A stretch of 64,000 bases of DNA from an uncultured Gammaproteobacteria bacterium (GCA_964568925.1 CAZMSJ010000002.1:12339-76338); one strand, 5' to 3'. Numbered from the stretch's first letter, positions 1,891 through 63,966 are shown. The notes: generated from the letters alone by a model not told the origin. Numbers and translations are program-made.

Positions 1891-1898
1891 TGTACAAT
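1891..1898 (+). promoter_or_regulatory. -10 box TGTACAAT, 5 nt before ATG 1904 (leaderless candidate)
   Basis: It lies in a 61-nt intergenic gap, with no SD between the box and the ATG. Confidence 0.35.
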
Positions 1899-1903
1899 AG
1901 GGA

Positions 1904-2665
1904 ATGGCTAAAGAGGCACAACCGTATCTGTCTGTCGTTATTCCTGCATATAAGGAAATTGATAATCTGAAACTTGGTGTTCTAGAAATGGTTCGTGACT
2001 ATCTTCAAAAGCAGACATACAGCTGGGAAGTATTAATTGTTGATGATGGATCTCCTGATAAAACTGCTGACGTAATTGAAAAGAAAATTGCTCATTGGAA
2101 AGGTTTTTCTCTCTCTCGTGAACCACATCGTGGTAAAGGGGGAACGGTTATTGCCGGTGTTCTTTCAGCTCATGGAAAAATTGTTTTGTTTACCGATATG
2201 GATCAGGCAACTCCGTTAAACCAAATAGAAAAGTTTTTCCCTTATTTTGAAAAAGGAGCTGCTCTTGTGATTGGTTCACGACAGGGGAGGAAGGGTGCTC
2301 CATTAACCAGAAAAGTTATGGCGTATGGTTTCCAGATGTTAAGAACACTCATTTTAAGACTTCCATATAAAGATACTCAGTGTGGGTTTAAAGCTGTTAC
2401 TCACGAAGCTGCTCAAAAAGTATTCCACCAAATGAAAATATTTGGATCTGGGACATCAGTCAACGCTGGTGTAACTGCAGGCTTTGATCTTGAAATGCTG
2501 TACTTAGCAAGGAAGATGAGGCTCAAGACAATTGAAGTTCCTGTTGAGTGGGAACACAAAGGAACAGCTCGTGTTAGTGCCATTCGTGATTCATATCAAG
2601 GGCTTCGTGATATGGTAAAGGTACGTATTAATGCCCTTTCTGGAAAATACAAAATCACAAAATGA
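1904..2665 (+). CDS. GT2 (GT-A) glycosyltransferase, soluble DPM1/ALG5-like candidate polyprenol-phosphate hexosyltransferase
   Basis: Motifs LSVVIPAYKE, VLIVDDGSPDKT, FTDMDQATP, TQCGFK. 253 aa with no TM segment. Confidence 0.7.
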   Translation: MAKEAQPYLSVVIPAYKEIDNLKLGVLEMVRDYLQKQTYSWEVLIVDDGSPDKTADVIEKKIAHWKGFSLSREPHRGKGGTVIAGVLSAHGKIVLFTDMDQATPLNQIEKFFPYFEKGAALVIGSRQGRKGAPLTRKVMAYGFQMLRTLILRLPYKDTQCGFKAVTHEAAQKVFHQMKIFGSGTSVNAGVTAGFDLEMLYLARKMRLKTIEVPVEWEHKGTARVSAIRDSYQGLRDMVKVRINALSGKYKITK

Positions 2666-4236
2666 AAAAGATCTTAAGTTCGTTTTTCAAGGATACACGC
2701 CTGGTTATCGCTCTTTGTACCTCCGCTGTTATTCTCATCGCTTCAACTGTCGTCCGTCTCTTTCACCTAACAATTCTTCCTGTATTTGCTGATGAGGCAA
2801 TTTATGTTAGATGGGCTCAAGTGATGAAAGCAGAGCCGACACTTCGATATCTTCCCTTGTCAGATGGTAAAGAGCCGTTGTACATGTGGATCCTAATGCC
2901 AGTATTTAAGATATTTTCTAATCCACTCTTTGCTGGTCGCTTTGTATCTGTTGCAGCTGGGATGGGAACTTCACTCGGTGTTATGGCCCTTGCCTATGTG
3001 TTGTTTCGTTCAAAGAAAGTAGCAGTATTGTCTCTTTTTCTCTATCTTGTTAGTCCCTTCACCTTCTTCTTTCATCGAATGGCACTGGTTGACTCGTTGT
3101 TATCTTTATTTGGAGTGTGGGTTGCCGTCTTTTCAGTACTGACTGTTAAAAATATTCAAAGAGGTGGGAGATCCTTTGATTTTCCACTCGCCACAGGTTT
3201 TTCATTAGGCTTTGCCTGGCTAACCAAGTCCCCAGCCTTATTCTTTGCACTTCTGTCTTCAGGTTCAGTTATCTTTATTCGAAAGCCATCAATAAAGGTT
3301 ATTGTTCTTTCACTCTTTGCTATTTTGTTTTCAATTGGAATTGGGTATGGAATGTACAACACGTTGCGTCTCGGTCCTAATTTTCAAATGATTGCGAGTC
3401 GCAATTTAGATTATGTATTCCCGGTAAGTCACATTATTGAAAACCCTCGTGATCCATTTATCTTTCATGTCGACCGCGCACTCGAGTGGTTCTTTATTTT
3501 GGGGCCATTTACAATACTTATCCTCGCAGCATTGGGTAGCATTGATTTAGTTAAAAAATATTCCCGAGAAGTTCTCTTTTTGCTCGCTTGGTTTGCGATA
3601 CCACTTCTTGTCGAGGCAGAATTTGCTAAGGTGTTTACCGCTCGATATGTGTTTTTCACCATTCCACCACTTGCCGTCTTAGCAGGCGCAATTGCGTTAA
3701 GTCAATCAAAGCTAATTCGAAGAGTTTCAGGGGTTATTATTTTTGCAGGTGTTGTTTTGTCTCTCCAAAACATCTTCTTGTTAATCACTAATCCAGCTCG
3801 TGCATACCTTCCAAATGGTGAACGCTCAGGGTACCTTGTTGAATGGACAGCTGGAACTGGGATATATGAGTCATCTCTTTTTGTTCGGCAAGAGCTGAAG
3901 GCTCACCCTGATCAGCATATCGTAATTGGGACTGAAGGGTATTTCGGTACGCTTCCAGATGGTTTGCAGATCTATTTAGAGAGAGTTCCCAATGTAACCA
4001 TTTTTGGAACTGGACTCAATTTCTCTGATGTACCCCAAAGTTTGAAGGATGCAAAAAAAGAAGGGAAACGAGTCTTTTTCGCAGTGAATGCATCACGGCT
4101 CAATTTGAAGAAATCTCCAGAGGAATATGGTTTGAAGACTGTCCTTTCCTTCCCGAAGGAATTGAGAGACCGAGATACTCGTGAATATGTTCAACTAGGA
4201 GACCGTGATACCTACTATTTCTTTGAACTTCAGTAG
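2662..4236 (+). CDS. GT-C-fold membrane glycosyltransferase, ArnT/PMT_2-like
   Basis: 524 aa. TM1 is followed by LPVFADEAIYVRWAQ (acidic DE loop), then at least 10 hydrophobic segments and a C-terminal soluble domain. ATGA overlap with the upstream GT2. Confidence 0.7.
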   Translation: MKKILSSFFKDTRLVIALCTSAVILIASTVVRLFHLTILPVFADEAIYVRWAQVMKAEPTLRYLPLSDGKEPLYMWILMPVFKIFSNPLFAGRFVSVAAGMGTSLGVMALAYVLFRSKKVAVLSLFLYLVSPFTFFFHRMALVDSLLSLFGVWVAVFSVLTVKNIQRGGRSFDFPLATGFSLGFAWLTKSPALFFALLSSGSVIFIRKPSIKVIVLSLFAILFSIGIGYGMYNTLRLGPNFQMIASRNLDYVFPVSHIIENPRDPFIFHVDRALEWFFILGPFTILILAALGSIDLVKKYSREVLFLLAWFAIPLLVEAEFAKVFTARYVFFTIPPLAVLAGAIALSQSKLIRRVSGVIIFAGVVLSLQNIFLLITNPARAYLPNGERSGYLVEWTAGTGIYESSLFVRQELKAHPDQHIVIGTEGYFGTLPDGLQIYLERVPNVTIFGTGLNFSDVPQSLKDAKKEGKRVFFAVNASRLNLKKSPEEYGLKTVLSFPKELRDRDTREYVQLGDRDTYYFFELQ

Positions 4237-4245
4237 TCAGGTCTG

Positions 4246-4254
4246 TGGTATGAT
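4246..4254 (+). promoter_or_regulatory. Extended -10 TGgTATGAT, 12 nt before ATG 4267
   Basis: It lies in a 30-nt intergenic gap with no SD. The predicted leader is about 6 nt. Confidence 0.35.
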
Positions 4255-4266
4255 CGATTAGCATTT

Positions 4267-6024
4267 ATGTCATTTTTTTGGAATAAATCACTTACAAAGG
4301 TCGTTAAAAGTCATGATTTCATAGCTCTTGTCATTGTCCTTTTTGCGGCATGGCTTGCTTCTCGTTCTCTTTTTGCTGGTGGTTATTTTAATATGCATGA
4401 CGATCTTCAGATGATGCGTCAGCTGTCGATGGAAAAGTGCTTCCTAGACTTACAAATTCCTTGTAGATGGATACCAGACATGGGGTATGGCTTCGGATAC
4501 CCATTGTTTAATTTTTATCCACCTCTTCCATATCTCGTTGGAGAGATTTTTCGTGTAATTGGATATTCATTTGTTGATACCGCAAAAGCCTTGTTTATCC
4601 TTTCATTCTTTGTGTCTGGCGTAACTATGTATTACTTGGCAAAGAATTTCTTCGGTCGAGCCGGTGGGGTATTGTCAGCAGTCTTTTATATTTGGGCCCC
4701 TTACCACGCAGTTGATGTATTTGTTCGCGGAGCAATGAACGAGTCATGGGGACTTATGTGGTTCCCTGCAATTTTATTGTTCTCATATAAATTACTCAGT
4801 AAACCTGTCTTATCTTTCAAAAAGAAAGATATAATAGATTCACTTCCTAACGTGATTCTTCTTTCTCTTTCATGGGCTGCATTGTTAACCTCACACAATT
4901 TGATGGTAATTATCTTTACTCCATTTTTTGCTTTGTGGTGTGGAGTTTGGCTCGTAAAGAGCAAAAACTGGAAGTCAGTTGTTCCACTTTTGGTCTCTGG
5001 TCTTTGGGCTGTTGGGTTAGCCGCATTTTTCACACTCCCTGTCTTTTTAGAAAAAAACATCGTTCAAACAGATACCTTAATAAAAGGATATTACGAATAT
5101 ACTGCTCATTTCCCAAGTGCCCGTCAGCTTCTGTTCTCTCGTTTTTGGGGTTTTGGTCCATCTGTTTGGCTTGAAAACGATGGGATGCCATTTCAGATTG
5201 GATGGTTCCATTGGATAACTCCACTTATTGTGGCTGCTTTGTTATTTGTTCGAACGCTAAAAACAAAGAAGTTTGATCAGTTGTTTTGGGTCATATCAAT
5301 TGCATTTGTTATTGGAGCAGCAGCTACCTTTATGTCTCACCCTCGTTCCACCCCAATCTGGGCACATATTCAAGCACTTCAATTTATTCAATTCCCATGG
5401 AGATATTTGACGATGGTTATCCTTGGGTTCTCATTCGCAGTTGGTGGTTTGGTGAGACTCGTACCAAAGGCTTTTTCATATCCAATCGCAGTTGTTCTTA
5501 TGGCTGGCGCTATCGCATATAGCTGGGGATATTTTCTTCCTGAACATGGAAAGCTTGGACCACTTACTGATCAAGAAAAGTTTACTGGAGCTGCTTGGGA
5601 ATTACAGCAGACAGCTGGTATTTATGATTATTTGCCAAATACTGCGTGGACCGCCCCACATGGACCACGAAAAGTGCAGGCTGAGATTATGGAAGGAACT
5701 GGTGAAGTTATTACTGGTACTTCAGGTACCAATTGGGAAAAGTTTTCAGTTAAAGCAGAAACAGATGTTACAGTTCGTGTGAGTCTCCTTCAGTTTCCAA
5801 CATGGCATGTCTTGGTTGATGGCGTAGAGACTGAAACGTTTGTACCAAAAACGGAAGAATGGGGAAGACTCTATGTCGTGATACCAAAAGGTGAGCATCA
5901 AGTATCAGTGAAGTTATCTGATACACCTATTCGTACTGCTGGAAACATTATATCAATTGTTTCATGGGTGTTGCTAGGATTGATTCTGTTTTTCCGACGC
6001 AATACACTCATGCATAAGGCATGA
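4267..6024 (+). CDS. Polytopic membrane protein, YfhO/PTPS-related-type GT-C candidate
   Basis: 585 aa with YFNMHDDLQMMRQLSMEKC...IPCRWIPDMGYGFGYPLFNFYPPLPY. Paralogue of the 27989 product. The C-terminus has a beta-rich domain (LLQFPTWHVLVDG) plus a terminal TM, as in YfhO-type proteins. Confidence 0.6.
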   Translation: MSFFWNKSLTKVVKSHDFIALVIVLFAAWLASRSLFAGGYFNMHDDLQMMRQLSMEKCFLDLQIPCRWIPDMGYGFGYPLFNFYPPLPYLVGEIFRVIGYSFVDTAKALFILSFFVSGVTMYYLAKNFFGRAGGVLSAVFYIWAPYHAVDVFVRGAMNESWGLMWFPAILLFSYKLLSKPVLSFKKKDIIDSLPNVILLSLSWAALLTSHNLMVIIFTPFFALWCGVWLVKSKNWKSVVPLLVSGLWAVGLAAFFTLPVFLEKNIVQTDTLIKGYYEYTAHFPSARQLLFSRFWGFGPSVWLENDGMPFQIGWFHWITPLIVAALLFVRTLKTKKFDQLFWVISIAFVIGAAATFMSHPRSTPIWAHIQALQFIQFPWRYLTMVILGFSFAVGGLVRLVPKAFSYPIAVVLMAGAIAYSWGYFLPEHGKLGPLTDQEKFTGAAWELQQTAGIYDYLPNTAWTAPHGPRKVQAEIMEGTGEVITGTSGTNWEKFSVKAETDVTVRVSLLQFPTWHVLVDGVETETFVPKTEEWGRLYVVIPKGEHQVSVKLSDTPIRTAGNIISIVSWVLLGLILFFRRNTLMHKA

Positions 6025-7839: not shown

Positions 7840-7848
7840 TGATACAAT
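7840..7848 (+). promoter_or_regulatory. Extended -10 TGaTACAAT, 6 nt before GTG 7855 (leaderless candidate)
   Basis: Exact TGnTAnAAT match in a 37-nt gap. Confidence 0.45.
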
Positions 7849-7854
7849 TGGTTT

Positions 7855-9369
7855 GTGAAAAGTACTCGTATTAAAGAAACAGTTGAGGTTCGTGATCCTG
7901 GTGAAGTTGAAATTGGGATTGCAGAGGTCAAAGCTAGATCTGTACGTGGAATTGTTGTTTTAACTGGACGAACCTTCTTTTTGCAAATCATTGCCGTTAT
8001 CGCCTCAGGCTTTTTGTGGGCATATCTAGGGCCATCAGAACTTGGGGTATTTTTCATTTTGAATGCTGTCATCAATTTCTTGAACTACTTCTCTGATGTA
8101 GGCTTAGCTGCAGCATTAATTCAAAAGAAAACACATCCAACGGATGTTGATTTAAAAACTACATTCTTCGTTCAGGAACTTCTTGTATTAACACTCATTG
8201 GTATTGTGGTATTACTTACTCCATTTTTTACTCAGAAGTATTCTTTAACTCAAGATGGTGTAGTCCTTTTGTATGCACTTGCCTTATCTTTCTTTTTGTC
8301 ATCTCTCAAAAGTATTCCGTCAATCTTGCTTGAAAGAAAGCTCGATTTTATTAAGCTCACGTTTCCACAAATCTTGGAGCAAGTGTTGTACTTTGTTGTA
8401 CTCGTTTACTTTGCGGTTAATGGATATGGTATTAAAAGTTTTACCATCGCAGTTATCGCTCGTGACATTATTGGACTTGTAAGTATTTATTGGCTACAGC
8501 CATGGATGCCAGGAATTGCATTTTCTCGCTCGACCTTGAAAGATCTCTTCCGGTTTGGGATACCGTTTCAAATTAATACATTGCTCGCGGCATTTAAGGA
8601 CGATGGAATGACGATTGTTCTTGGGGGAATACTTGGGCCCGCCGGGGTTGGTTTCCTTGGGACTGCTCAAAAATTTGCTCGTTATCCGTTAACCTTCTTT
8701 ATGGATACGGTTACTCGTGTAACCTTCCCAGCATTTTCCCGAATGCAAGATTCACCACTTGATCTGGCAAGAAGTGTAACCCGATCAATCTTTTTCATTT
8801 GTTTTCTCGTATTTCCTTCTCTCGTTGGGTTAGCCATTGTTGCACCATATATCGTTGAAGTTATCCCTCGGTACAATCAGTGGAAGCCGGCATTAGTTGC
8901 GCTCACATTTGTTTCTATTAACTTTATGTTTGCTGCAGCAACGACACAATTAACAAATCTACTAAATGCTATTGGCAAGATTCGTATTACATTCTTTTTG
9001 ATGATTATGTGGACGACCCTTACCTGGGTATTTATTCCACTGCTCGCTATGAGGTTTGGAGTAAATGGTGCAGCTCTCGGGTATTCACTTGTTGGTTCAT
9101 CATCGTTAATTGCAATCTATATTGCTAAAAAGCATGTTAATTTTTCTCTGTATCACTCAGTCGGTAAACCACTCATTGGAACGGGGATAATGGCTACCGT
9201 TCTTGTGTTATTACGCATTTTTCTTCCACTCAATAGTTATTCAATTATTATTCTTTCTCTTGTTGGTGCAATTGTGTACGTCGTAGTTATGGTTGCACTC
9301 GTTGGGGCATCACTCGTTGAAGATGCAAAAAAGAGTTTTAAAACGGTTATCGGGAAAAAGATTGCCTAA
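7855..9369 (+). CDS. MOP-superfamily polysaccharide flippase (Wzx-like)
   Basis: 504 aa with about 12-14 TM segments and a layout typical of polysaccharide biosynthesis proteins. GTG start lies 6 nt after TGATACAAT. Confidence 0.65.
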   Translation: MKSTRIKETVEVRDPGEVEIGIAEVKARSVRGIVVLTGRTFFLQIIAVIASGFLWAYLGPSELGVFFILNAVINFLNYFSDVGLAAALIQKKTHPTDVDLKTTFFVQELLVLTLIGIVVLLTPFFTQKYSLTQDGVVLLYALALSFFLSSLKSIPSILLERKLDFIKLTFPQILEQVLYFVVLVYFAVNGYGIKSFTIAVIARDIIGLVSIYWLQPWMPGIAFSRSTLKDLFRFGIPFQINTLLAAFKDDGMTIVLGGILGPAGVGFLGTAQKFARYPLTFFMDTVTRVTFPAFSRMQDSPLDLARSVTRSIFFICFLVFPSLVGLAIVAPYIVEVIPRYNQWKPALVALTFVSINFMFAAATTQLTNLLNAIGKIRITFFLMIMWTTLTWVFIPLLAMRFGVNGAALGYSLVGSSSLIAIYIAKKHVNFSLYHSVGKPLIGTGIMATVLVLLRIFLPLNSYSIIILSLVGAIVYVVVMVALVGASLVEDAKKSFKTVIGKKIA

Positions 9370-11140: not shown

Positions 11141-11160
11141 CCTCCTCCTTGTTTTTTTCG

Positions 11161-11168
11161 TGTACAAT
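11161..11168 (+). promoter_or_regulatory. -10 box TGTACAAT, 6 nt before GTG 11175 (leaderless candidate)
   Basis: Same octamer as at 1891-1898. Confidence 0.4.
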
Positions 11169-11174
11169 AAGGCT

Positions 11175-12068
11175 GTGAAGATTTCAGTTGTCATTAACAC
11201 CAGAAATGAATCAAGCAATATTGAGCGTGCTATAGCCTCAATTAAGTCTTTTGCCGATGAAATTATCGTGGTTGATATGGAGTCATCTGATGACACCGTT
11301 AAAAAGGCAAAAAAGGCAGGTGCGGTTGTCTTTCCTCACAAAAATACCCAATACGTAGAGCCTGCACGTAACTTTGCGATTAAAAAGGCTACAGGGGATT
11401 GGATATTTATTTTAGACGCAGATGAAGAAGTTCAGCCAGCACTTGTAAAAGAACTGAAAAAGATCGCCAAAGAGGGTAAGTATCATTTTGTGCGAATCCC
11501 ACGAAAAAATATTATCTTTGGAAAATGGATGGAACACGCGAGATGGTGGCCTGACTACAACATTCGATTCTTCAAGAAAAACGCGGTTACCTGGGATGAC
11601 GAAATCCATTCGATACCAATAACAGTAGGGGATGGAATTAACTTAGAGGAAAACGTTTCTTTAGCTATCATTCATCATAATTATCAAACGGTTGAACAAT
11701 ACCTCGACCGGCTAAATCGCTATACGACGGTACAAGCCGCACATCTTATCAAGATAAAGAATGTTACTGCTCGTGATTTTATCGTTCGACCTTCTTCAGA
11801 GTTTTTAACACGGTATTTTGCTGGTCATGGGTACAAAGATGGAATGCATGGACTGGCTCTGTCACTGTTACAATCCTTCTCAGAACTTATTGTTGTTGCT
11901 AAAGCATGGCAAAAAAATGATTTTGCTGAAACTGATGCTCCACTGCGAGAGGTAACTAAGGCACTCAAAGAAACACAAAAAGAAATTAACTATTGGTCTG
12001 CACATGCTCATGTCGAAGAAGGAGGAAGTGTCGTAGATCAAGTAAAAAGAAAATTTAAACTTCCATAA
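11175..12068 (+). CDS. GT2 glycosyltransferase (WaaE/KdtX-like subfamily)
   Basis: Motifs KISVVINTRNESSNIERAI, IIVVDMESSDDT, ILDADEE, ARWWPDY. GTG 11175 is preferred over the ORF-track GTG 11160 for two reasons: TGTACAAT (11161-11168) sits 6 nt upstream, and the N-terminus then matches paralogue 34583 (MKTLSVVLATRNEESN). Confidence 0.75.
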   Translation: MKISVVINTRNESSNIERAIASIKSFADEIIVVDMESSDDTVKKAKKAGAVVFPHKNTQYVEPARNFAIKKATGDWIFILDADEEVQPALVKELKKIAKEGKYHFVRIPRKNIIFGKWMEHARWWPDYNIRFFKKNAVTWDDEIHSIPITVGDGINLEENVSLAIIHHNYQTVEQYLDRLNRYTTVQAAHLIKIKNVTARDFIVRPSSEFLTRYFAGHGYKDGMHGLALSLLQSFSELIVVAKAWQKNDFAETDAPLREVTKALKETQKEINYWSAHAHVEEGGSVVDQVKRKFKLP

Positions 12069-14787: not shown

Positions 14788-17092
14788 ATTCCTTACAGCC
14801 ACGTTTTCGACACATGGATATCTGTTACTGTGCTTTGTTATCCCTGCAATATTCTTTTATCGTTCACTTTTTGGAGGTCAGGTAAGTTTGCCAGCTGACT
14901 TTATCGTTGGTGTATACGAGCCATGGCTATCAAGTCATTTTGAAGGCTATCCAGCAGGTATTCCAGTCAAGAATCCAATAATGGCTGATGTTGTCTCCTT
15001 TACCTATCCGATGCAAACGCTTGTTGCTCGAGAGATTGCTTCTGGTCATCTTCCCCTGTGGAATCCGTATATCTTGGGTGGATCGCCACTGTTGGCAAAT
15101 TTCCAGTCAGCTCCGTTTGCAATTACAAATCTCGTCTATCTGTTTTTCTCTGAGGTAGTAGCTTGGAACGTAAAACTGTATTTAGCCCATGTGCTGTGCA
15201 TGGTCACTTTCTGTTTACTTATGCGTTCTTTTTCTCTGTCCAAAAAGGCTTCCCTGATTGGTGCCACACTCTATGCGTTCACTGGCTTTACGGTGATTTG
15301 GTCACAGTGGAGTGCCCACACGCTTGCTGCAAGCTTTATTCCAGCCATTATTTACTTTATTAAAAAGTATGGGGAAACCAAGTCTTTACGAGCTGGTGGA
15401 ATGATTTCACTTATGCTTGCCTTTCAAATATTTTCTGGCTATCCACAACTAACTATCTATACAGTTGGCGTAATTATCTTAAGTATTCTCTTTTTTTCAA
15501 ATTGGCAGAAACACATCATCTCTACAGCAACACACTACGCATTCTTTCTAGCATTAGGACTTTTGTTTGCAGCGATTCAGCTGGTTCCGGGTCTAGAACT
15601 ATTAAAACTTTCACAAAGAAGTACAGAACTGCATCCATTTGAATGGGCCTTTCTGCCTCTTTCGAAACTTATCACGTTTATTATTCCTGACTATTTTGGA
15701 AATCATGTAACGGCAAATTATTGGGGGCCACAGGACTACACATCAAACACAGGCTTTGTTGGGATGATTGCTGTTTTTCTAATGGGTATAGTAAGTAGTA
15801 GCAAGAAAACGAAGACTTTTTATTTTCTACTTGGTATCGCCGTCTATGGAGTAGTAATGTCATTTCCGACAACATTATCACTCATACTCTGGAAGAGTGG
15901 GGTCTTAGGTTTTAATGCGGCCTCTGCCCATCGTGCGATGGTTATGTGGTCACTAGGTGCATCTGGTCTTGCGGCGCTTGGGTTTGATGCGTTGCTTCAC
16001 AAGCGTGTTTCATATCAACGAGTTATTCGTTGGATTTTTCTATCATCAATCACAATTGCTGGAATAGTGTTCGTTGCCCTTTACAATCGATTTGTTAGTC
16101 ATGACCTCCATTACACAACGGCCTTAAGAAACATGGTGCTTCCAGTTGCACTCTTTCTGTCCGTTTCAACGTTTACAGTGCTGTTCCTTCGTAAAATAAT
16201 ATCAGAGGCAATTTTCTATGCGGTTGTGTTGTTGTTTATTGTTACTGAGCTATTTTCTTTTGGTTGGAAATTCACACCTTTTACGCCAAAACAGTTTTTA
16301 TATCCTGATACGGGGATTACCAAAGAACTAACTGCACCATGGGTTACTAGGACTACTGGAAATACCGTTATTCCTGTTAACTTTCGTATGAGTTATGTCA
16401 TCTCTGCACTCGAAGGGTACGATGCCGTCTACCCTGCACGGGCAGCACAATATATCTCCTCTCTAAACGCATTAAGTGGTACAAGCCGCGTATCTGGCAG
16501 ATATGCGTTAGTTGACGACATTCATTCAGCTCTTGTTCCTCTTGCCTCAGTTAACAGCATCATTACGAGCAACCCATCAGAATTTGATTCCCTCCGATAT
16601 AAAACAGTTTTGACTGAGAACAAGACCACTATTTTAGAAGATTCTCTTGCCCTTCCTTCTGCATACTTTGTGCAAAACACTCTATATAAAAAAACGGCAG
16701 ATGTTATTGAAACGCTCTTAAGTAAAGACTTTGATCAAAAGAACTCAGCTGTCATTGAAGGTAATCTAGCACAGGGTAATTGTGTATCAGGTCAGGTAAT
16801 TTCAAATGTGTCTTTGTTTGGAGAACGAACTATTGAAGTACAAACAAATGGTGGATGTGTCCTTGTTGTAACTGATTCTTTCTATCCGGGATGGATCGCA
16901 TCAATTGATGGAAATCAAACAAAAATATATGCTGCAAACTATTTATTTAGAGCAATCTATGTACCTGACGGCTACCATCGTGTTCGTTTTGTGTATCGTC
17001 CAGATTCATTTCTAGTTGGGTCAATCATTACCTTTTTGAGTGGCGTTGTTATTTTTATGTTGGTACTACGAAAGCACAAGAAGTCGAGCTAA
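14759..17092 (+). CDS. YfhO-family polytopic membrane protein (GT-C-type glycosyltransferase candidate)
   Basis: 777 aa with FFYRSLFGGQ...PADFIVGVYEPW...HLPLWNPYILGGSPLLANFQSAPF. C-terminus SFYPGWIASIDGNQTKIY...YHRVRFVYRP plus a terminal TM. Confidence 0.7.
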   Translation: MSTLMHYFNKFLTATFSTHGYLLLCFVIPAIFFYRSLFGGQVSLPADFIVGVYEPWLSSHFEGYPAGIPVKNPIMADVVSFTYPMQTLVAREIASGHLPLWNPYILGGSPLLANFQSAPFAITNLVYLFFSEVVAWNVKLYLAHVLCMVTFCLLMRSFSLSKKASLIGATLYAFTGFTVIWSQWSAHTLAASFIPAIIYFIKKYGETKSLRAGGMISLMLAFQIFSGYPQLTIYTVGVIILSILFFSNWQKHIISTATHYAFFLALGLLFAAIQLVPGLELLKLSQRSTELHPFEWAFLPLSKLITFIIPDYFGNHVTANYWGPQDYTSNTGFVGMIAVFLMGIVSSSKKTKTFYFLLGIAVYGVVMSFPTTLSLILWKSGVLGFNAASAHRAMVMWSLGASGLAALGFDALLHKRVSYQRVIRWIFLSSITIAGIVFVALYNRFVSHDLHYTTALRNMVLPVALFLSVSTFTVLFLRKIISEAIFYAVVLLFIVTELFSFGWKFTPFTPKQFLYPDTGITKELTAPWVTRTTGNTVIPVNFRMSYVISALEGYDAVYPARAAQYISSLNALSGTSRVSGRYALVDDIHSALVPLASVNSIITSNPSEFDSLRYKTVLTENKTTILEDSLALPSAYFVQNTLYKKTADVIETLLSKDFDQKNSAVIEGNLAQGNCVSGQVISNVSLFGERTIEVQTNGGCVLVVTDSFYPGWIASIDGNQTKIYAANYLFRAIYVPDGYHRVRFVYRPDSFLVGSIITFLSGVVIFMLVLRKHKKSS

Positions 17093-17095
17093 AAT
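17090..17095 (+). promoter_or_regulatory. -10 box TAAAAT, 6 nt before ATG 17102
   Basis: It overlaps the upstream TAA stop. Confidence 0.3.
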
Positions 17096-50159: not shown

Positions 50160-50180
50160 ACAAATATCCTCTTTTCGTGT

Positions 50181-50189: not shown

Positions 50190-50202
50190 CTAGACTTACG
50201 GT

Positions 50203-51015: not shown

Positions 51016-52034
51016 AAAAGCCACTTGTTTCAATTATCATCGTAAATTACAACGGGTATGACGTACTGGTCCCTTGCATTAAAAGTCTTCAAAAGCTTGA
51101 GTATTCAAATTTTGAAATAATTATTGTTGATAACGGTTCGGAGGATGCTTCAATTGAGTTTATTAAGAATTTGAAAATTAAGAATGTATCGTTAATTCAA
51201 AGCTCAGAAAATCTTGGATTTGCAGGAGGAAACAATTTAGCACTAACCAAAGCAAAAGGTGAATACTTATTGCTCTTAAACAACGATACGGTTGTCCCAT
51301 CAAATCTATTAACAGTTCTCGTTGATAAGCTTGAACAAGACCCAACAATCGGTGCCCTACAGCCAAAAATCAAATTTATGGATGAACCAAAGCGCCTCGA
51401 TAACGCGGGTGCATTTTTAAATAGACTAGGGCTAACGGTTCATTGGGGGTTTGGAGAGATTGATCGTGATGAATTCGATCATGAAGCAGAAATATTCAGT
51501 GCAAAGGGTGCATGTCTACTTACCAGATCATCACTTGTAAAGCATATCGGCTTATTTGATGATCATTTTGGATCATACTTTGAAGAAAGTGACTTTTGTT
51601 GGAGAGTATGGCTTGCGGGCTTTCGAGTCATCTATTACCCAAAAGTATCAATTTTGCATAAGGTTGGCTTTACCAGCGAAAAGATGGACACTGTTTTTGT
51701 GATGTTACATTCCACAAAAAACCGTATATTTTCGCTTTTTAAAAACCTTTCATTCATAAATCTCTTTTTGATATTTCTACCTCATCTCGCATTTTTGTGT
51801 ATGCTTGGAACATACTACTTAGTTAAGTTACAGCCTAAAAAGGCATGGATGCTTTTTGGAGCGATCTGGTGGAACATAACTCATGCTGGTCTGTTAGCTA
51901 AAGAGCGGAGTGCAACCCAAAAATTACGTACTGTCTCTGACATTTCGTTAACCAATAAAATCATGAGGCCACTTGATATACCAGCTCTCTTTCGTCATTT
52001 TAAAAAGGTAGAAGCAAATTTAGATAGAACCTGA
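51012..52034 (+). CDS. GT2 glycosyltransferase with C-terminal TM segment(s)
   Basis: Motifs VSIIIVNYNG, IIIVDNGSEDAS, NLGFAGGNN, LLNNDT, FEESDFCWR. Hydrophobic tail FINLFLIFLPHLAFLCMLGTYYLV. ATGA overlap. Confidence 0.8.
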   Translation: MKKPLVSIIIVNYNGYDVLVPCIKSLQKLEYSNFEIIIVDNGSEDASIEFIKNLKIKNVSLIQSSENLGFAGGNNLALTKAKGEYLLLLNNDTVVPSNLLTVLVDKLEQDPTIGALQPKIKFMDEPKRLDNAGAFLNRLGLTVHWGFGEIDRDEFDHEAEIFSAKGACLLTRSSLVKHIGLFDDHFGSYFEESDFCWRVWLAGFRVIYYPKVSILHKVGFTSEKMDTVFVMLHSTKNRIFSLFKNLSFINLFLIFLPHLAFLCMLGTYYLVKLQPKKAWMLFGAIWWNITHAGLLAKERSATQKLRTVSDISLTNKIMRPLDIPALFRHFKKVEANLDRT

Positions 52035-52040
52035 TACAGT
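52032..52040 (+). promoter_or_regulatory. Extended -10 TGaTACAGT, 6 nt before ATG 52047 (leaderless candidate)
   Basis: The TGA of the motif is the stop codon of the upstream gene. Confidence 0.45.
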
Positions 52041-52046
52041 ATCACT

Positions 52047-52715
52047 ATGAAATCTTTTCCAAAGACTATACCAATTAATGGTCGAGTACGTGTATGTTTA
52101 GAATTGTTGCGTGGGGAGAGTATTAAAAACAAACAAATTATTGATGTTGGATCTACGTTTGGTTGGTTAGCTCGTGAAATAGAGAAGGATAAGCCTAAGG
52201 GATATATTGGAGTGGAGCCAAATGCAGAAGCAGTAGCTTTTTCAAAAAAGAATGCTAAATACGCACAATTTTTCGAAGGAGATGCCGCACATATGCCGAT
52301 AAAAAATGGCATAGGAGACATTGCTGTTTTCTTTGATGTTATTGAACATGTCCCCGTTGATACTGAAATTGAATGTTTAAAAGAAATTCATCGTGTATTA
52401 AAGCCAAAAGCAACACTTCTTCTTTCAACCCCATTTGATCATCCGGTTACAAAATTACTAGATCCTGCCTACTATTTTGGACACCGTCACTATACAAAGG
52501 AAAGGCTACAAAAAATGCTAAAGCAGTCAGGATTTACATTAGAGAGTTTTGAAGTACGTGGTGGTTATGTTTCTCTGACATATATGATTCTTTTTTATAT
52601 AGCCAAATGGGTTTTCAATAAGGATCTTAATGGTACTTGGATTCAGAAAGAGGACGATAAGTCATATTCAAAAGAAGGTATCGCAACAGTGTATTTGAAG
52701 GCTGTTAAAAAGTAA
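52047..52715 (+). CDS. Class I SAM-dependent methyltransferase
   Basis: Motifs IIDVGSTFGWLA and VFFDVIEHVP. Confidence 0.7.
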   Translation: MKSFPKTIPINGRVRVCLELLRGESIKNKQIIDVGSTFGWLAREIEKDKPKGYIGVEPNAEAVAFSKKNAKYAQFFEGDAAHMPIKNGIGDIAVFFDVIEHVPVDTEIECLKEIHRVLKPKATLLLSTPFDHPVTKLLDPAYYFGHRHYTKERLQKMLKQSGFTLESFEVRGGYVSLTYMILFYIAKWVFNKDLNGTWIQKEDDKSYSKEGIATVYLKAVKK

Positions 52716-52717: not shown

Positions 52718-54328
52718 TTACCCTCGTTTTAATATCTTTGAAGGAATGGACTGCCCCATTGAGTGTTCAAATTGTTGGAGTCTATTATGTCCAATTTGAT
52801 TTAGCTGTAATTTCTCTCTGGTATAACCTTCTGCAATTTCTCTTAATTGTACTAATTCTTGTGCATTGAGATAGTCTGTCCACACATATGCCGTGTATTC
52901 TCCAGGTACACCTTTGTAGTAATTTGCATCTTTCAAATAATCGACTTCACTACTCCATAACCGGGCAACTTCGCCATTTTTTTTGTTTTTCATTTCATAC
53001 AACCACGCATTTCTTTCAGGTACATATACTGAGTGATCAAAATATGGTGAACCAGGGTATTGGGTGATAATTGTCCAGTCAACGTCGTCACCAACTGACA
53101 GGTTATTTGAAACCCACTCAATTGATTCTCCAATAGTTGTTTCACTCTCACCTGGATGTCCGATTGACATAAGTGCTTTGAAACTAAGACCTGCATTATG
53201 TGCGGTTTCTACACAGCGACTGTTAATTGCTCGTGAGGTGTGCTTTTTCATGACAGACAGTATGCTGTCGCTTCCAGATTCAACTCCAGACAAGAGTATT
53301 TTAAATCCTGCTTGATACATGAGACGAGCTTGCTCAGGGGTAAAGAGCTCAGCTTTGACAAAACCTCTAAATCTCATTTCATGCCCCAATCTGTCTTGCA
53401 TATCAATTAGCCCGGTACAGAGTTTTTCAAGGTTTGATGGAGAAACATTCAATTCGTCATCGTAGAACATAACGCCACCGTAGGGGGTGTCAGTATCAAG
53501 TGAAGGAGTAACGACTGATTCAATTTCTCGAATCACATCGTTGATGTCTCGAGTTCGTGCTATTCGAAATACTTGTGAATCACGTCCTCCACAAAAACCA
53601 CATTCAAATGGACACCCAAGTTGGCCAATAACTGAGAATGCTCTTCTTCCGTCAATTGAATAATGGTAACTATCAAGATCAATTAAATGTCTTGCTGGAT
53701 GCTCAAAGCTTTCGAGTGTCCCTTTCTGTAAAAAGAGCGGTGACTTAGTCGTGCTGCTATCGATTACTTGTTGAGTTTGATCTGGGTCTATTGCATAAAA
53801 AATTGATTCTTCTCCATCACCTGACACTATGCGATCAAACAAATTTGTGAGCTGCATAAAGGCGTGTGTTCCACGTCCTTTTCTTCCTGTTTTTGCATCT
53901 TCAGTAAAAGCTGCGTGTGTAAGTGTCGCGTGTGGCCCTCCAAGGATGACTGTTGACTGTGAACTTACATCTTTGATTGCTTGAGTGATTGATGCTGCCG
54001 TTGGAATTTGTGGTGTCGTGGCTGTAATTCCATAAACGGCATCCTGATTTTCAGCTGCATATTGTCTGACGATATCAAGATAATTTGAGTAACCTGACAA
54101 ATCTAAAACATTTGTTTGATTTCCGTTTTTTGATAATTCAGCTGCAACTTTCAAAGGACCGAGAAACGGAAATACTCGTTCATCTGCAAGAAACGGAGAA
54201 GGGGGAATAACAATTGTTACTGGAATGTCTCGTACCTTTTCTTTTTGTTCCTGAAGGGGCGTAATGCGCTCAGAGAATTCGACGTTTGAGTTTGATGGAG
54301 ATTTTTGTTCGAATTCGTAACGTGACAT
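52718..54328 (-). CDS. B12-binding-domain radical SAM enzyme (class B rSAM)
   Basis: CxxxCxxC cluster motif GCPFECGFCGG. The N-terminal Rossmann-like domain (VTIVIPPSP...GPLKVAAEL...ITATTPQIP...VILGGPHATL) is typical of B12-binding rSAM proteins. Confidence 0.8.
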   Translation of the reverse strand: MSRYEFEQKSPSNSNVEFSERITPLQEQKEKVRDIPVTIVIPPSPFLADERVFPFLGPLKVAAELSKNGNQTNVLDLSGYSNYLDIVRQYAAENQDAVYGITATTPQIPTAASITQAIKDVSSQSTVILGGPHATLTHAAFTEDAKTGRKGRGTHAFMQLTNLFDRIVSGDGEESIFYAIDPDQTQQVIDSSTTKSPLFLQKGTLESFEHPARHLIDLDSYHYSIDGRRAFSVIGQLGCPFECGFCGGRDSQVFRIARTRDINDVIREIESVVTPSLDTDTPYGGVMFYDDELNVSPSNLEKLCTGLIDMQDRLGHEMRFRGFVKAELFTPEQARLMYQAGFKILLSGVESGSDSILSVMKKHTSRAINSRCVETAHNAGLSFKALMSIGHPGESETTIGESIEWVSNNLSVGDDVDWTIITQYPGSPYFDHSVYVPERNAWLYEMKNKKNGEVARLWSSEVDYLKDANYYKGVPGEYTAYVWTDYLNAQELVQLREIAEGYTREKLQLNQIGHNRLQQFEHSMGQSIPSKILKRG

Positions 54329-54334
54329 GATGCT

Positions 54335-54365
54335 AAAGTATCATGCAAACAACGTGAAGCGTCAA
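54335..54365 (-). promoter_or_regulatory. Promoter of the radical SAM gene: -35 TTGACG, 19-nt spacer, extended -10 TGaTACTTT, then 6 nt to ATG 54328
   Basis: The minus strand reads TTGACGCTTCACGTTGTTTGCATGATACTTTAGCATC-ATG. Confidence 0.45.
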
Positions 54366-54371: not shown

Positions 54372-55070
54372 TTATCTTAATTGCCACCACAGTTTAAATG
54401 CGTTGGAAAATGTAGCAAACACTACGTTCCACTTTGCGTTTTTCACTTCACCAGAAATTCTTGGATGATAATAACTTGGTGCTTCTACAATTCGTAGACC
54501 TTTCTTTCGGAATTTAACAAGAATCTCAGTCAGGATAAATATGCCACCCAACGCTTCAAGTCTCACTCTTTTAACAGCATTTGTTCTCCATATATTTACC
54601 CAGCCAACATCCATGTATTTAACATCAAACAACATAAGAAGAAGCAACAGATATCCATATGAGAAGAATATTCGTTTTGTTGCATAATCGGTTCTTCCTC
54701 CTCGATACCCGAGTATCAAGTCAGCTTCATCAAGAACCTCAAAACAGTGGCGCATATCATCTACCAGAAATTGACCATCAGCTGGCATGTATGCAACAAA
54801 TTCCTTTGTAGATTTTTTAATTCCAGCAAGCATTGCTCTACTAAATCCAACATTTTTATCCATCTGAACAACTGTGACTTCTTTGCATTTCTCAGCGACT
54901 TGCTTTGCAATTTTGGCTGTTTTGTCATGACTTCCATCATCAACTAGGATTATTTCCCAGTCTTTAAAATACTTTGGAAGTTTTTTGATTGAATCCCTAA
55001 GCACAAGTCGAACGTTTTCTTCTTCGTTGTATGCAGGAATTACAATTGAAATTGAGTGTCCTTTCTTCAT
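54372..55070 (-). CDS. GT2 glycosyltransferase, DPM1-like candidate polyprenol-phosphate sugar synthase
   Basis: Motifs ISIVIPAYNEEEN, IILVDDGSHDKT, YMPADGQF. ATG 55070 (MKKGHSISIV) is preferred over the ORF-track TTG 55091 because TGaTATAGT sits 7 nt upstream of it. Confidence 0.7.
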   Translation of the reverse strand: MKKGHSISIVIPAYNEEENVRLVLRDSIKKLPKYFKDWEIILVDDGSHDKTAKIAKQVAEKCKEVTVVQMDKNVGFSRAMLAGIKKSTKEFVAYMPADGQFLVDDMRHCFEVLDEADLILGYRGGRTDYATKRIFFSYGYLLLLLMLFDVKYMDVGWVNIWRTNAVKRVRLEALGGIFILTEILVKFRKKGLRIVEAPSYYHPRISGEVKNAKWNVVFATFSNAFKLWWQLR

Positions 55071-55077
55071 AAGCCAC

Positions 55078-55086
55078 ACTATATCA
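55078..55086 (-). promoter_or_regulatory. Extended -10 TGaTATAGT (minus strand), 7 nt before ATG 55070
   Basis: The minus strand reads CTGATATAGTGTGGCTT-ATG. Confidence 0.4.
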
Positions 55087-55116: not shown

Positions 55117-55125
55117 TGCTACAAT
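55117..55125 (+). promoter_or_regulatory. Extended -10 TGcTACAAT, 6 nt before GTG 55132 (leaderless candidate)
   Basis: Exact TGnTACAAT match in a divergent 61-nt region. Confidence 0.45.
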
Positions 55126-55131
55126 CGACTG

Positions 55132-55779
55132 GTGAAGCAAAACGCAAAAAACAAAGTCATTAGTCTCTATCAGAAGGGTAGTTATACTCGTCTCTTCTCA
55201 TATATACGTTTTTGGGATGCACCCTACTCACAAGTAGAAAAGCTTATTCCAAAAAAAGGCACAATAGTTGAACTAGGTTGCGGTGAAGGGCTCTTCAGCA
55301 ACTTCCTTGCTGTTTCAGAACCAAAAAGAAAAGTTATTGGTATTGAGATTGATAAAAATCGTTTTAAAAATGCAGATAAGGGTTTACCAAATGCCACTTT
55401 CTCATATGGTGACATAACAAAGGTTACGATTCCAAAAGCTGATACTGTAGTGCTTTTCCATGTATTGCATCACCTTCGTTCATATACAGCACAATCCACA
55501 CTCTTAAGACGTGTTTCTTTAGGTATCCCTAAAAACGGGCGATTGATTGTGGTTGAGGTTGAACCAGTATTTTCATTCAAATATTTTGTAACTTGGTTTA
55601 CTGATCATTTCTTAGTACCTTGGCTTTTTGAAAAACGATTCTATTCGCCTATTTATTTTAGAGAGGCACAGGATTGGAAGGAACAATTTACTGAACTTAA
55701 TTTTGATGTAAAGATAAAGCGATATCGAAAAAATATGCCGTTTTCACATATTGTCTATGAATGTATCAAGATTAAGTAA
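55132..55779 (+). CDS. Class I SAM-dependent methyltransferase
   Basis: GTG start. Motifs IVELGCGEGLFS and VVLFHVLHHL. Confidence 0.75.
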   Translation: MKQNAKNKVISLYQKGSYTRLFSYIRFWDAPYSQVEKLIPKKGTIVELGCGEGLFSNFLAVSEPKRKVIGIEIDKNRFKNADKGLPNATFSYGDITKVTIPKADTVVLFHVLHHLRSYTAQSTLLRRVSLGIPKNGRLIVVEVEPVFSFKYFVTWFTDHFLVPWLFEKRFYSPIYFREAQDWKEQFTELNFDVKIKRYRKNMPFSHIVYECIKIK

Positions 55780-62231: not shown

Positions 62232-62927
62232 TTTTTCCGCGATTATGTGATTTTCAAAGAAACCCCCTTTTTGATATTCATAATTCACTAACTGATTGAT
62301 AAAATTCGGCCATTTAATTTCGTTGTACTTGAGTAAATGCTTCATGATCAATTCAATATTTACGGTTAGTATCCTCGTTATACCGCCAGTTTGGTACGTG
62401 TTTCTAATTTTAAAATTGTTCTTTTGAAGCATTTCAATTAGATATTTCATACTGTAATGTCTATGCCCAATCAAAAAAAACGCAGGATCTCCTAAAATTG
62501 ATAAAATATGTTTGTTGGGAGTTGAAATGATAAGTATGCCCTTCTTTCTCATGACCCTGGATATCTCCTTAATCACGGTATCTTCTAAATTGGCAGGCAC
62601 ATGTTCAATTACTTCAAACAACAACACAGTATCAAAGGAATTATTGTTGAACGGAAGTTTTTGTGCATTCGCAACTTTTAATGAAGCATCTGGTAACTTC
62701 TTTCTTGCGATAGCTATAGCTTCTGCTCCTGGGTCAATACCCGATATCGATTTTGCATCCAACTTAATACAATCCAGAACCATACCTGTCCAGCAACCTA
62801 TATCAAGGACATCTTTTTTCTGAATATGTTTTTTAGCGATTTTTAAGTTGAATTTATGATGAACAGATAATCTTTCATCAAAAGCCATATTTACCTTTCT
62901 TCGAGTAGATTCATCAATTCTTTTCAT
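62223..62927 (-). CDS. Class I SAM-dependent methyltransferase
   Basis: Motifs VLDIGCWTGMV and VLLFEVIEHVP. ATGA overlap with the upstream GT2. Confidence 0.8.
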   Translation of the reverse strand: MKRIDESTRRKVNMAFDERLSVHHKFNLKIAKKHIQKKDVLDIGCWTGMVLDCIKLDAKSISGIDPGAEAIAIARKKLPDASLKVANAQKLPFNNNSFDTVLLFEVIEHVPANLEDTVIKEISRVMRKKGILIISTPNKHILSILGDPAFFLIGHRHYSMKYLIEMLQKNNFKIRNTYQTGGITRILTVNIELIMKHLLKYNEIKWPNFINQLVNYEYQKGGFFENHIIAEKLS

Positions 62928-63955
62928 ATATGGAATAAGTTGCGAATCATTTTATAGATTAGTTTTTGGCCGTCTTTAGCTGCTATCAGATTAAAAACTA
63001 GTATGTCAGTTGTTGCAATTGTAATTAAAGGTTCAGCAAGCAAAACAGAGTCCTTCTCCTTTATAGCTCTATAAATTCCTCTTATTGTTGCCGGAATAAT
63101 TAAGTTTGCATATATAATCCAAGCAATAATTTTAAATATATCCTTTTTGTTGGATACATCGAACCATTTAAAATACGTGGTCTCTTGATACGGGAAAAAA
63201 TGCATGTGTAGATTCCTAACTCTCTTATAAACAAGATGAGAAAGAGTTTTTGCGTGAAAATGATATATTCCTGCAGACGGTACATATGCAAACGTATGAT
63301 ACCCATCCTTTACAAGCGCACATACGCTATCAAGGTCAAAGAATCCGGGCCAATTCCAAGACTCGTTTGCTTTGATAACACTTGTTCGAAAGAGCATTCG
63401 CCCTGCAGGTGGAATTTTAAAGTTTGCATAATTTAAAATCCAATAATTTTTTGTCTTTTTTACTACACGAGAGTTAATCGATGCTGAAAAATACTCGTAC
63501 ATCGGGTCACACTGTATGGGATGATACGATATGAACTTTGTAACCCAGGTCATTTTTTTACTTGGAACTCCCTCCCTCCCAAAACTTGCTACAATTTTTT
63601 CATCAGCTTCTAAGGGATATACTAGTTTTTCAAAAAAGTTATTTCCAACGAGTTCAATATCTTGTTCTAAAACATACACATACTTGCCTTTAGCATTGTG
63701 TAAACCGATACTTTTACCTACCTCTGATCGATTTATCGTTTTGTTACCATCAAAAATATTATCAAGATATATTGCTTTATACTTTCTAATAATAGATGCA
63801 GTGTTATCTTTTGATCGATCGTTTACAACAATAATTTCAAGTTTATTTTGAGGATATGATTGCCTTTTAATTGAAAGGATACACTTTTCGAGCCCTTTTG
63901 CATCATCTTTTGTAGGAATAATTATGGATATTTTTGGATAACTCTGACTGGTCAT
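62924..63955 (-). CDS. GT2 glycosyltransferase
   Basis: Motifs KISIIIPTKDD, IIVVNDRSKDNT, VLEQD. Confidence 0.75.
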   Translation of the reverse strand: MTSQSYPKISIIIPTKDDAKGLEKCILSIKRQSYPQNKLEIIVVNDRSKDNTASIIRKYKAIYLDNIFDGNKTINRSEVGKSIGLHNAKGKYVYVLEQDIELVGNNFFEKLVYPLEADEKIVASFGREGVPSKKMTWVTKFISYHPIQCDPMYEYFSASINSRVVKKTKNYWILNYANFKIPPAGRMLFRTSVIKANESWNWPGFFDLDSVCALVKDGYHTFAYVPSAGIYHFHAKTLSHLVYKRVRNLHMHFFPYQETTYFKWFDVSNKKDIFKIIAWIIYANLIIPATIRGIYRAIKEKDSVLLAEPLITIATTDILVFNLIAAKDGQKLIYKMIRNLFHI

Positions 63956-63960
63956 TCGGT

Positions 63961-63966
63961 ATTATA
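63961..63966 (-). promoter_or_regulatory. -10 box TATAAT (minus strand), 5 nt before ATG 63955
   Basis: The minus strand reads TTATATATTATAATACCGA-ATG. Confidence 0.3.

Follow-up and report, generated by a model that had tools for sequence, protein, structure and literature searches.

Promoter -10 elements next to start codons suggest leaderless first cistrons in a Microgenomates-like CPR bacterium

What is the role of a -10-like hexamer that stands only 5–7 nt before a start codon, with no SD in between? The question is raised by a stretch of 64,000 nt of DNA, here called the window, in which nearly all genes are glycosyltransferases or related. Gene content and nearest relatives indicate a Microgenomates-like CPR bacterium, related to Woesebacteria/Daviesbacteria; since both are those of CPR bacteria, an archaeal origin does not fit. 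We report the motif, its spacing, its enrichment, its restriction to first genes, its conservation and its distribution over lineages. The reading that we prefer, with a probability of about 0.78, is that most transcription units would be driven by the -10 element with +1 at the start codon, the first cistron being leaderless and without SD, and the internal cistrons SD-independent.

Twelve sites had been quoted in an earlier note on this DNA, and every hexamer, spacing and start codon is present exactly as given. Leaderless candidates on the plus strand are ctgTACAAT, 5 nt before ATG 1904 (1890..1906; GT2 gene), the same in the 96%-identical strain L092; TGaTACAAT, 6 nt before GTG 7855 (7840..7857; polysaccharide flippase-like gene), an extended -10; gtgTACAAT, 6 nt before GTG 11175 (11160..11177; GT2 gene); TATACT, 6 nt before ATG 26382 (26367..26384; PMT_2-like glycosyltransferase); ttgTATACT, 7 nt before ATG 35885 (35869..35887; GT4 gene); TATAGT, 7 nt before ATG 41523 (41507..41525; DUF5667 protein); and TGcTACAAT, 6 nt before GTG 55132 (55117..55134; methyltransferase), divergent from 55070 and conserved in L003, a syntenic relative of about 71% nucleotide identity. 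TGaTACAGT, 6 nt before ATG 52047 (52032..52049, plus strand; methyltransferase), is kept in L003, where the spacer differs; its hexamer starts directly after the stop codon of the upstream gene. On the minus strand are TGaTATAGT, 7 nt before ATG 55070 (55068..55086; GT2 gene; TGcTATAGT, 7 nt and ATG in L003) and TATAAT, 5 nt before ATG 63955 (63953..63969; GT2 gene), both leaderless candidates. The list had overlooked TAGACT, 6 nt before ATG 50203 (50188..50205, plus strand), of which hexamer and spacing, not the spacer sequence, are conserved in L003. At 17 nt upstream of the 50203 site there is a TGTATGAT that looks stronger.

One quoted site makes a weaker case. TAAAAT, 6 nt before ATG 17102 (17087..17104, plus strand), is a candidate internal promoter that overlaps the stop codon of the gene before it (gap 9 nt); the sites at 17102 and 52047 lie partly or wholly inside the 9–12 nt gap after the upstream gene. 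The sites at 17102, 51012 and 52047 are placed at the 3' end of the upstream gene or inside it, and some could be chance. At TGaTACTTT, 6 nt before ATG 54328 (54326..54343, minus strand; B12-binding radical SAM gene; TTGACG upstream), L003 has lost the T at -7, a point against the preferred reading; as L003 has TACTTG at this position, the real -10 may be GATACT/AATACT, shifted upstream by one base.

No SD core was found in any of the 14 candidates with spacers of 5–7 nt. The earlier note had singled out the TGn extension. The extended -10 does peak at 6 nt, but its canonical form occurs in only 5 of the 12 quoted sites; TG is at -15/-14 at 7855, 52047, 55132, 54328 (minus), 55070 (minus) and 47146, also at 4267, 41270 and 50159 (minus), and is lacking or displaced at the other sites, at 1904 and 11175 by one base relative to the canonical extended -10 (TGTACAAT). 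The start codon is GTG in three or four candidates, a point against the leaderless reading; GTG on leaderless mRNAs is poor in E. coli and functional in mycobacteria. Starts that had been revised to 11175 and 55070 are those chosen by an independent gene caller, as is 41523 (297-aa product from 11175, 179-aa product from 41523), and the upstream GTG 11160 falls inside the putative promoter of 11175.

How far could such a pattern arise from AT-rich intergenic DNA and selective choice of starts? The 40 nt upstream are 67% A+T, and four starts had been shifted by the earlier reader to fit the pattern. The motif had been said to occur in nearly every intergenic gap; the real count, TANNNT 5–7 nt before the start, is 11 of 17 operon-leading genes (curated), plus a variant hexamer at 47146, against 3 of 35 internal genes (Fisher p = 4.8e-5), and is nevertheless strongly enriched over chance. 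Of all ATG/GTG triplets in the window, 5.4% have TANNNT 5–7 nt before them, and 0.46% have it with TGn; allowing for alternative-start choice, about 1.5 would be expected among the 17 leading genes (Poisson-binomial P = 5e-9). The enrichment over shuffled upstream regions, which the earlier note had proposed as a check, was borne out in the window: dinucleotide-preserving shuffles of the 17 regions gave 2.36 ± 1.40, and 0 of 20,000 reached 11. Within 0–30 nt, 13 of 39 TANNNT sit at 5–7 nt (p = 4.7e-5), and a histogram free of start choice has its maximum at 6 nt; in the window, five copies of TGNTANNNT have a spacing of 6 nt and a single copy one of 7 nt, with about zero at other distances. 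Chance was rejected by the shuffles and positional tests, also after the start-choice correction, and with revised starts that agree with the independent caller and low-GC controls from other phyla that are flat, we consider it practically negligible.

Comparison with relatives points the same way. The 96%-identical strain differs at 1 of 202 intergenic nt versus 4.0% overall (p = 0.0025), the short gaps being almost invariant. In L003, positions -15..-8 are 85% identical versus 59% for the spacer at -7..-1 (p = 9e-4), and 8 of 9 upstream regions are without indels; the hexamer and its distance from the start persist and the letters of the spacer differ. These comparisons indicate that the -10-to-start spacing is under constraint. 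Homologues of the GT4 gene at 35885 in 78 metagenome loci mostly have TATAAT/TATACT 5–11 nt before the start.

In 69 independent, related metagenome loci (dereplicated; 812 kb with 675 genes), TGNTANNNT stands exactly 6 nt before the start in 27 cases, where the background would give about 1.5; a spacing of 7 nt is seen in 8 cases and one of 5 nt in 2. TANNNT was counted 61 times against about 22. Counts over loci take in orthologous promoters and are not fully independent. An extended -10 at 5–7 nt is carried by 4.5–4.9% of genes in CPR, 9.4% in Elusimicrobia and 0.5% in other phyla; no 6-nt peak was seen in low-GC non-CPR control loci, which are flat, nor in the other phyla sampled. This distribution bears on whether TGnTACAAT could be the operator of a regulator of this glycosylation cluster, with its proximity to start codons incidental. 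The near-uniform gene content of the cluster and the recurrence of TACAAT at five sites would suit an operator. In loci of other CPR and of Elusimicrobia, however, unrelated genes by the hundred have the same geometry with varied hexamers, the invariant letters of TANNNT are T, A and T alone, and a palindrome or second half-site is not evident; we regard an operator as very improbable.

Not all units follow the pattern. TGgTATGAT stands 12 nt before ATG 4267 (4246..4269, plus strand), a unit with a short leader of about 5 nt and without SD; TACAAT stands 9 nt before ATG 43714 (43712..43732, minus strand; leader about 2 nt; conserved in L003); TATAAT stands 14 nt before ATG 43762 (43739..43764, plus strand), with a short leader of which the length is not conserved (12 nt in L003). 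Together with a small ORF at 41270 these four units have spacings of 9–14 nt, and so predicted leaders of 2–7 nt. The earlier note had counted three genes with real SD sites, and two of these are classical contrast cases: GTG 35497 (35446..35499, plus strand), with a TTGACT-17-TATAAT promoter and GGGAGG 6 nt before the start, and ATG 50159 (50157..50209, minus strand), with a TTGGCA-17-TGaTATCAT promoter and AAGAGGA, the SD being kept in L003 as AAGGGG. The third, at 47146, did not hold: its SD (GAGGTGAG) is not conserved, and the element conserved in L003 is instead the -10-like TGaGACAAT, 5 nt before ATG 47146 (47132..47148, plus strand), a variant with G at -12. With four leading genes at 9–14 nt and two SD-led, the architecture is mixed.

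Real promoters might also start transcription a few bases further upstream throughout, giving very short leaders (1–6 nt) that use an SD-independent 30S pathway. The four longer spacings speak for this, as do the homologous GT4 genes in relatives, which cluster at 8 and 11 nt besides 5–7 nt, and the close-relative loci L004–L010, which spread more widely (6–12 nt). Against it, the pooled independent loci peak at exactly 6 nt, which under the conserved 7-bp rule makes the codon's first base +1, and a spacing of 5–7 nt leaves no room for a leader; short leaders as the general arrangement therefore seem unlikely to us.

Upstream regions fall into two distinct classes. Internal genes, two thirds of all genes, mostly overlap the preceding gene (ATGA), often have AAA as second codon, and are A-rich and G-poor at -1..-5 (A 41%, G 7%); the leaderless candidates have a 5-nt 'discriminator' with G/C (G 30%, p = 1e-5). 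No SD 4-mer core was found in 33 of 35 internal genes, and one is present in 4 of 127 genes of Microgenomates-like loci. 'Largely leaderless', as the earlier note had it, is valid per transcription unit (about 65–80%), not per gene. An organism that almost never uses SD must have another translation signal, and AT-rich elements can bind protein S1; on leadered mRNAs the TA-rich hexamer could then serve to bind ribosomes without SD or to enhance translation, not as a promoter, as in the Bacteroidetes-type 'group B'. The internal cistrons here resemble group B in their A-rich, G-poor upstream regions, lack of SD and frequent AAA second codons. In group B, however, one non-SD motif precedes all genes (PMC6028130) on leadered mRNAs; here, first genes are preceded by a promoter hexamer, which is rare at internal cistrons (3 of 35) and matches the sigma-70 -10 consensus, TGn included, at the correct offset. 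A translation element of this kind appears improbable.

The preferred reading, a -10 that sets +1 on the start codon, has well-described counterparts. Bacterial leaderless genes have been defined by this very signature, as 'TA-led' genes (Zheng 2011, PMC3160421), as 'group C' of GeneMarkS-2 (Lomsadze 2018, PMC6028130) and as the '-10-motif' of Deinococcus-Thermus, validated experimentally in Deinococcus (PMC12340547); leaderless transcriptomes have been mapped in M. tuberculosis (PMC3898074) and D. deserti (PMC4007540). The window resembles group C in having TANNNT 6–8 nt before ATG/GTG at first operon genes only, no SD and a weak -35, and in the share of genes with an ORF-adjacent -10, about a quarter (14 of about 52) versus 20–30% in Actinobacteria/Deinococcus-Thermus. 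It differs in lineage (low-GC CPR/Microgenomates), in the frequency of TGn, and in that internal genes are essentially without SD, whereas in group C the SD sites are retained where genes are internal or leadered. The TG one base upstream and little or no -35 match are shared with the extended -10 (TGn) promoters known from E. coli and Gram-positive bacteria; here the element is set so that +1 would land on the start codon. A generic two-hexamer promoter scan was not enriched (35 found versus 44 expected), so that promoter calls depend on the -10 alone; -35 matches occurred only at 54328 (minus) and 50159 (minus), and the extended -10 may act independently of the -35. Archaeal leaderless genes ('group D') likewise have no 5' UTR and a start codon at the 5' end, as predicted here, but their TATA lies about 26 nt upstream, and here the element is at -12..-7 in a bacterium; no TATA/BRE-like peak near 20–30 nt upstream is seen in the spacing histograms.

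Promoters of sigma-70 type, the -35 weak or absent, would drive most units, their -10 (consensus TAcAaT/TATAcT, often with TGn) ending 5–7 nt, mostly 6, before ATG/GTG. The transcription start site and mode of translation are predicted via the -10-to-TSS distance, which is conserved at 7 bp in 49 bacteria (PMC12641261): RNA polymerase would start about 7 nt past the hexamer, as the earlier note had stated and as the modal 6 intervening bases match, placing the transcript 5' end at the start codon or within one or two bases of it. With a -10 box about 6 nt before the start, the mRNAs would probably be without leader and without ribosome-binding site; a 5'-terminal AUG/GUG would be recognised directly, without SD pairing, and downstream cistrons would presumably be served by termination-reinitiation coupling or SD-independent loading. 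All in-silico tests, namely confinement to first genes, spacing, conserved geometry, revised starts and related loci, agree with the earlier leaderless reading and with +1 on the start codon.

We found no literature description of an ORF-adjacent -10 leaderless arrangement for this lineage; the known in-silico signature of bacterial leaderless genes here occurs in a low-GC Microgenomates-like CPR bacterium. Loss of the anti-SD is reportedly rare in CPR, one subgroup of Parcubacteria excepted (PMC9297842). The ORF-adjacent -10, not the loss of SD, is also seen independently in high-GC Elusimicrobia. Tentatively, and at somewhat less than even odds, we suggest that Microgenomates-type CPR gave up SD-dependent initiation almost entirely, as a lineage-wide regime with leaderless first cistrons (extended -10 exactly 6 nt away) and downstream cistrons served via overlaps and A-rich, G-poor junctions. 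If true, this SD-free regime would possibly be tied to the reduced CPR ribosome.

In most transcription units of the window, a -10 element of sigma-70 type, frequently with the TGn extension and mostly lacking a -35 match, precedes the start codon of the first (leading) gene by 5–7 nt (mode 6 nt). All twelve sites quoted in the earlier note were recovered with the hexamer, spacing and start codon claimed for them, and a further site absent from it was found at 50203 (TAGACT, 6 nt). The gene list was curated and then divided into 17 leading genes (at least 25 nt away from the upstream gene, or with a divergent neighbour) and 35 internal genes (overlapping the preceding gene or within a few bases of it). 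TANNNT ended 5–7 nt before the start in 11/17 leading genes (1904, 7855, 11175, 26382, 35885, 41523, 50203, 54328-, 55070-, 55132, 63955-; minus-strand genes are marked '-') vs 3/35 internal genes (17102, 51012, 52047; Fisher p = 4.8e-5).

The background of this pattern before any ATG or GTG in the window is 5.4%, and 1.5 leading genes are expected when all alternative starts are allowed per gene (P(>=11) = 5e-9). The predicted excess over shuffled upstream regions was borne out within the window: dinucleotide-preserving shuffles of the 17 leading regions (67% A+T) gave 2.36 ± 1.40 genes, and at least 11 in 0 of 20,000. Among the 39 TANNNT hexamers at 0–30 nt in these regions, 13 are placed at 5–7 nt (p = 4.7e-5). 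When spacings were tallied for every candidate start of every ORF, which makes the result independent of start choice, the maximum lay at 6 nt, with TGNTANNNT essentially only at 6 nt. A generic promoter and terminator scan of 41000–56000 showed neither class enriched over shuffles; its promoter part recovered candidate sites only at 54328- and 50159-.

Bacterial transcription generally starts about 7 bp past the -10 element (PMC12641261), and an ORF-adjacent -10 signature is an accepted predictor of leaderless genes (PMC3160421; PMC6028130); in Deinococcus it was demonstrated experimentally to be the promoter of leaderless genes, spacing requirement included (PMC12340547). Candidate transcripts in the window would thus start at the A or G of the start codon, leaderless first cistrons would be translated without a Shine-Dalgarno (SD) sequence, and SD-less downstream cistrons would be read through translational coupling.

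No SD signal was detected at internal genes of the window, 33/35 lacking even a 4-mer core (for example 2662, 18625, 29635 and 60557). The 10 nt upstream of internal genes are rich in A (44–53%; genome 29%) and poor in G (6–12%), AAA is the second codon in 16/32, and there is overlap with the preceding gene in 27/32 (as ATGA in 14). The hexamer-to-codon spacer of the leaderless candidates, in contrast, contains G and C (G 30% vs 7% in internal genes; p = 1e-5). Two distinct upstream classes are thus present, which argues against the hexamer being a general translation signal. A pyrimidine at -1 ('start element') did not separate the two, being found at 10/14 candidates and 22/32 internal genes. 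The lineage looks essentially SD-free; unlike textbook genomes of group C (the GeneMarkS-2 class of genomes with leaderless genes), the window has internal genes almost totally without SD.

The SD sites proposed for 35497 and 50159(-) were both present. Gene 35497 (window 35446–35845, plus strand) has a GGGAGG SD behind a TTGACT-17-TATAAT promoter, and its 104-aa ORF (35497–35811) is followed by a GC-rich hairpin (GCCGCCC..GGGCGGC) and a T-rich run, making it a self-contained classical unit among SD-less operons; the gene could be strongly expressed or have been acquired recently. Gene 50159(-) has an AAGAGGA SD with a canonical promoter (TTGGCA-17-TGaTATCAT). Both genes indicate that the polymerase recognises canonical promoters and that SD sites are not wholly missing. 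A 43-nt gap separates the divergent genes 50159(-) and 50203(+); within it (50180–50196) the minus-strand -10 TATCAT and a plus-strand TATGAT overlap by five bases, beside the TAGACT hexamer; this block is entirely kept in L003, a syntenic relative (~71% nucleotide identity).

Four units have the hexamer at 9–14 nt (4267, 43714-, 43762 and the 41270 ORF), and so would have leaders of a few bases; in every leading gene of the window, the closest -10-like hexamer is within 25 nt of the start. The ORF at 41270–41473 (plus strand; 67 aa, one predicted hydrophobic helix) is unannotated and was missed by the public gene caller; it has TGtTACACT 10 nt before its ATG and lies in the largest intergenic gap (41243–41522), immediately 5' of the DUF5667 gene. 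Neither this small ORF nor the SD-led 104-aa protein had a Pfam match. The window contains no tRNA, and an Rfam scan of its whole length had no hits, so that this 280-nt gap is not a known RNA.

The revised starts that the earlier note had proposed at 55070 (232 aa) and 11175 (297 aa) were also chosen by the gene caller of the public collection, as was 41523 (179 aa), and the L003 orthologue of 55070 has no alternative start upstream. The hexamer region might instead be a leader if translation began further downstream; the Pfam GT2 and GT4 domains begin at most ~10 residues from the proposed N-termini, leaving no room for such a start. At window 319–436, the longest ORF starts from ATG 319, with an ATGA overlap with the upstream ORF; the public caller's product in a 96%-identical strain (468 aa) matches ATG 436 rather than 319, and neither ATG has a -10-like hexamer at 5–7 nt.

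That strain (L092/L093; contigs of 227 kb, SRR25018358_1497, and 122 kb) spans window 1175–22068 only and differs from it by 834 mismatches and 0 gaps over 20.9 kb. One of 202 intergenic bases is mismatched, whereas the overall rate is 4.0% (p = 0.0025); the short gaps are thus more constrained than coding sequence. Of nine orthologous leading upstream regions in L003, eight can be aligned with no indel, and the sole indel falls in the 43762 leader (12–14 nt). Identity is 85% at -15 to -8 and only 59% in the spacer at -7 to -1 (p = 9e-4); hexamer and codon distance are kept while the spacer letters are free, as a -10/+1 geometry predicts. The third proposed SD, at 47146 (GAGGTGAG), did not hold up: its sequence is not kept in L003, where instead TGaGACAAT, 5 nt before the ATG, is kept. 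The T at -7 of the 54328 site is missing in L003; TTGACG-17-GATACT/AATACT, one base upstream, is kept there and may be the true promoter.

The window (G+C 38%) holds ~52 tightly packed genes, mostly for glycosyltransferases (PMT_2/GT39-like, GT2, GT4), with methyltransferases, a flippase-like protein, a B12-binding radical SAM enzyme and the DUF5667 protein; window evidence comes from a single functional gene cluster. The PMT_2-like membrane glycosyltransferases (~550 aa) form six diverged paralogues (24–34% identity) almost in tandem at 20964–34581 (starts 20964, 23391, 26382, 29635, 31280, 32947); 4267/27989 is a further paralogous pair. With the radical SAM probe, the nearest genome was L003 (a syntenic MAG; 84% amino-acid identity), followed by Woesebacteria and Daviesbacteria MAGs, and judged by these relatives the source belongs to the candidate phyla radiation (CPR) and is Microgenomates-like. 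Several MAG records among the nearest relatives of this CPR locus (L003, L006, L007, L009, L010) are titled 'uncultured Gammaproteobacteria bacterium', labels that look wrong given a G+C and gene content like those of Woesebacteria and Daviesbacteria. For several window proteins, exact copies were confined to Logan assemblies from environmental runs; the metagenome runs containing these contigs are SRR13287410-21 and SRR25018317-58. Exact-protein look-ups outward from the window ends, for flanking sequence of the same genome, gave short contigs or no records only.

In 80 genome loci collected with the radical SAM probe, the extended -10 was counted 5–7 nt from the first ATG or GTG. The share of genes preceded by it is 7.7% for the window, 4.5% for Microgenomates-like loci, 4.9% for the remaining CPR loci, 9.4% for Elusimicrobia loci (64% G+C) and 0.5% (3/639 genes) for all other phyla; these counts include orthologous sites and so are partly non-independent. 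Low-GC loci of other phyla had a flat spacing profile, with no peak. The ORF caller for related loci was crude, which made an automated leading/internal split too noisy, and pooled spacing histograms were used. A second, independent set was obtained with a GT4 probe (69 dereplicated metagenome loci without taxonomic labels, 35–45% identity to the probe; 812 kb, 675 genes, G+C 37.6%). There, TANNNT occurred 61 times at 6 nt vs ~22 elsewhere, and for TGNTANNNT the counts were 27 (6 nt), 8 (7 nt) and 2 (5 nt) vs ~1.5 elsewhere; the majority of 78 GT4 homologues have TATAAT or TATACT 5–11 nt before the start. In the Elusimicrobia MAG loci (L021, L028, L032, L037, L039; 56–66% G+C), TGNTANNNT lies 6–7 nt before the starts of 9/96 genes; an ORF-adjacent -10 (leaderless) architecture is possible in this phylum as well.

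SD cores were found in 4/127 genes of Microgenomates-like loci. The radical SAM orthologue has a clear SD (AGGAGG, GGAGG) in Parcubacteria- or Saccharibacteria-type CPR loci (L013, L015, L017, L019, L027, L031, L052, L060, L067) and none in the Microgenomates-like loci L003–L010; CPR classes thus appear to differ in SD usage. The anti-SD is reported to be rarely lost in CPR, except in one Parcubacteria subgroup (PMC9297842).

In the papers searched, no description of leaderless architecture was found for CPR, Patescibacteria, Microgenomates or Elusimicrobia; leaderless genes were mentioned together with CPR, Patescibacteria, Microgenomates or Saccharibacteria only in reference lists. Possibly, CPR genomes are already classed as group C in the GeneMarkS-2 tables. 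The -10-adjacent leaderless architecture itself is already known, being well established in Actinobacteria and Deinococcus-Thermus; Microgenomates-like CPR bacteria are, on sequence grounds, a probable further example, which would widen its known range and is not a new mechanism. Start-codon calls in CPR genomes could become more accurate with a -10 box modelled 6 nt upstream, three window starts having been so corrected, and TGnTAcAaT is a usable promoter consensus for organisms that do not grow in pure culture. The ribosomal protein set of CPR bacteria is reduced, and the architecture suggests that these bacteria depend on leaderless and coupled translation instead of SD pairing.
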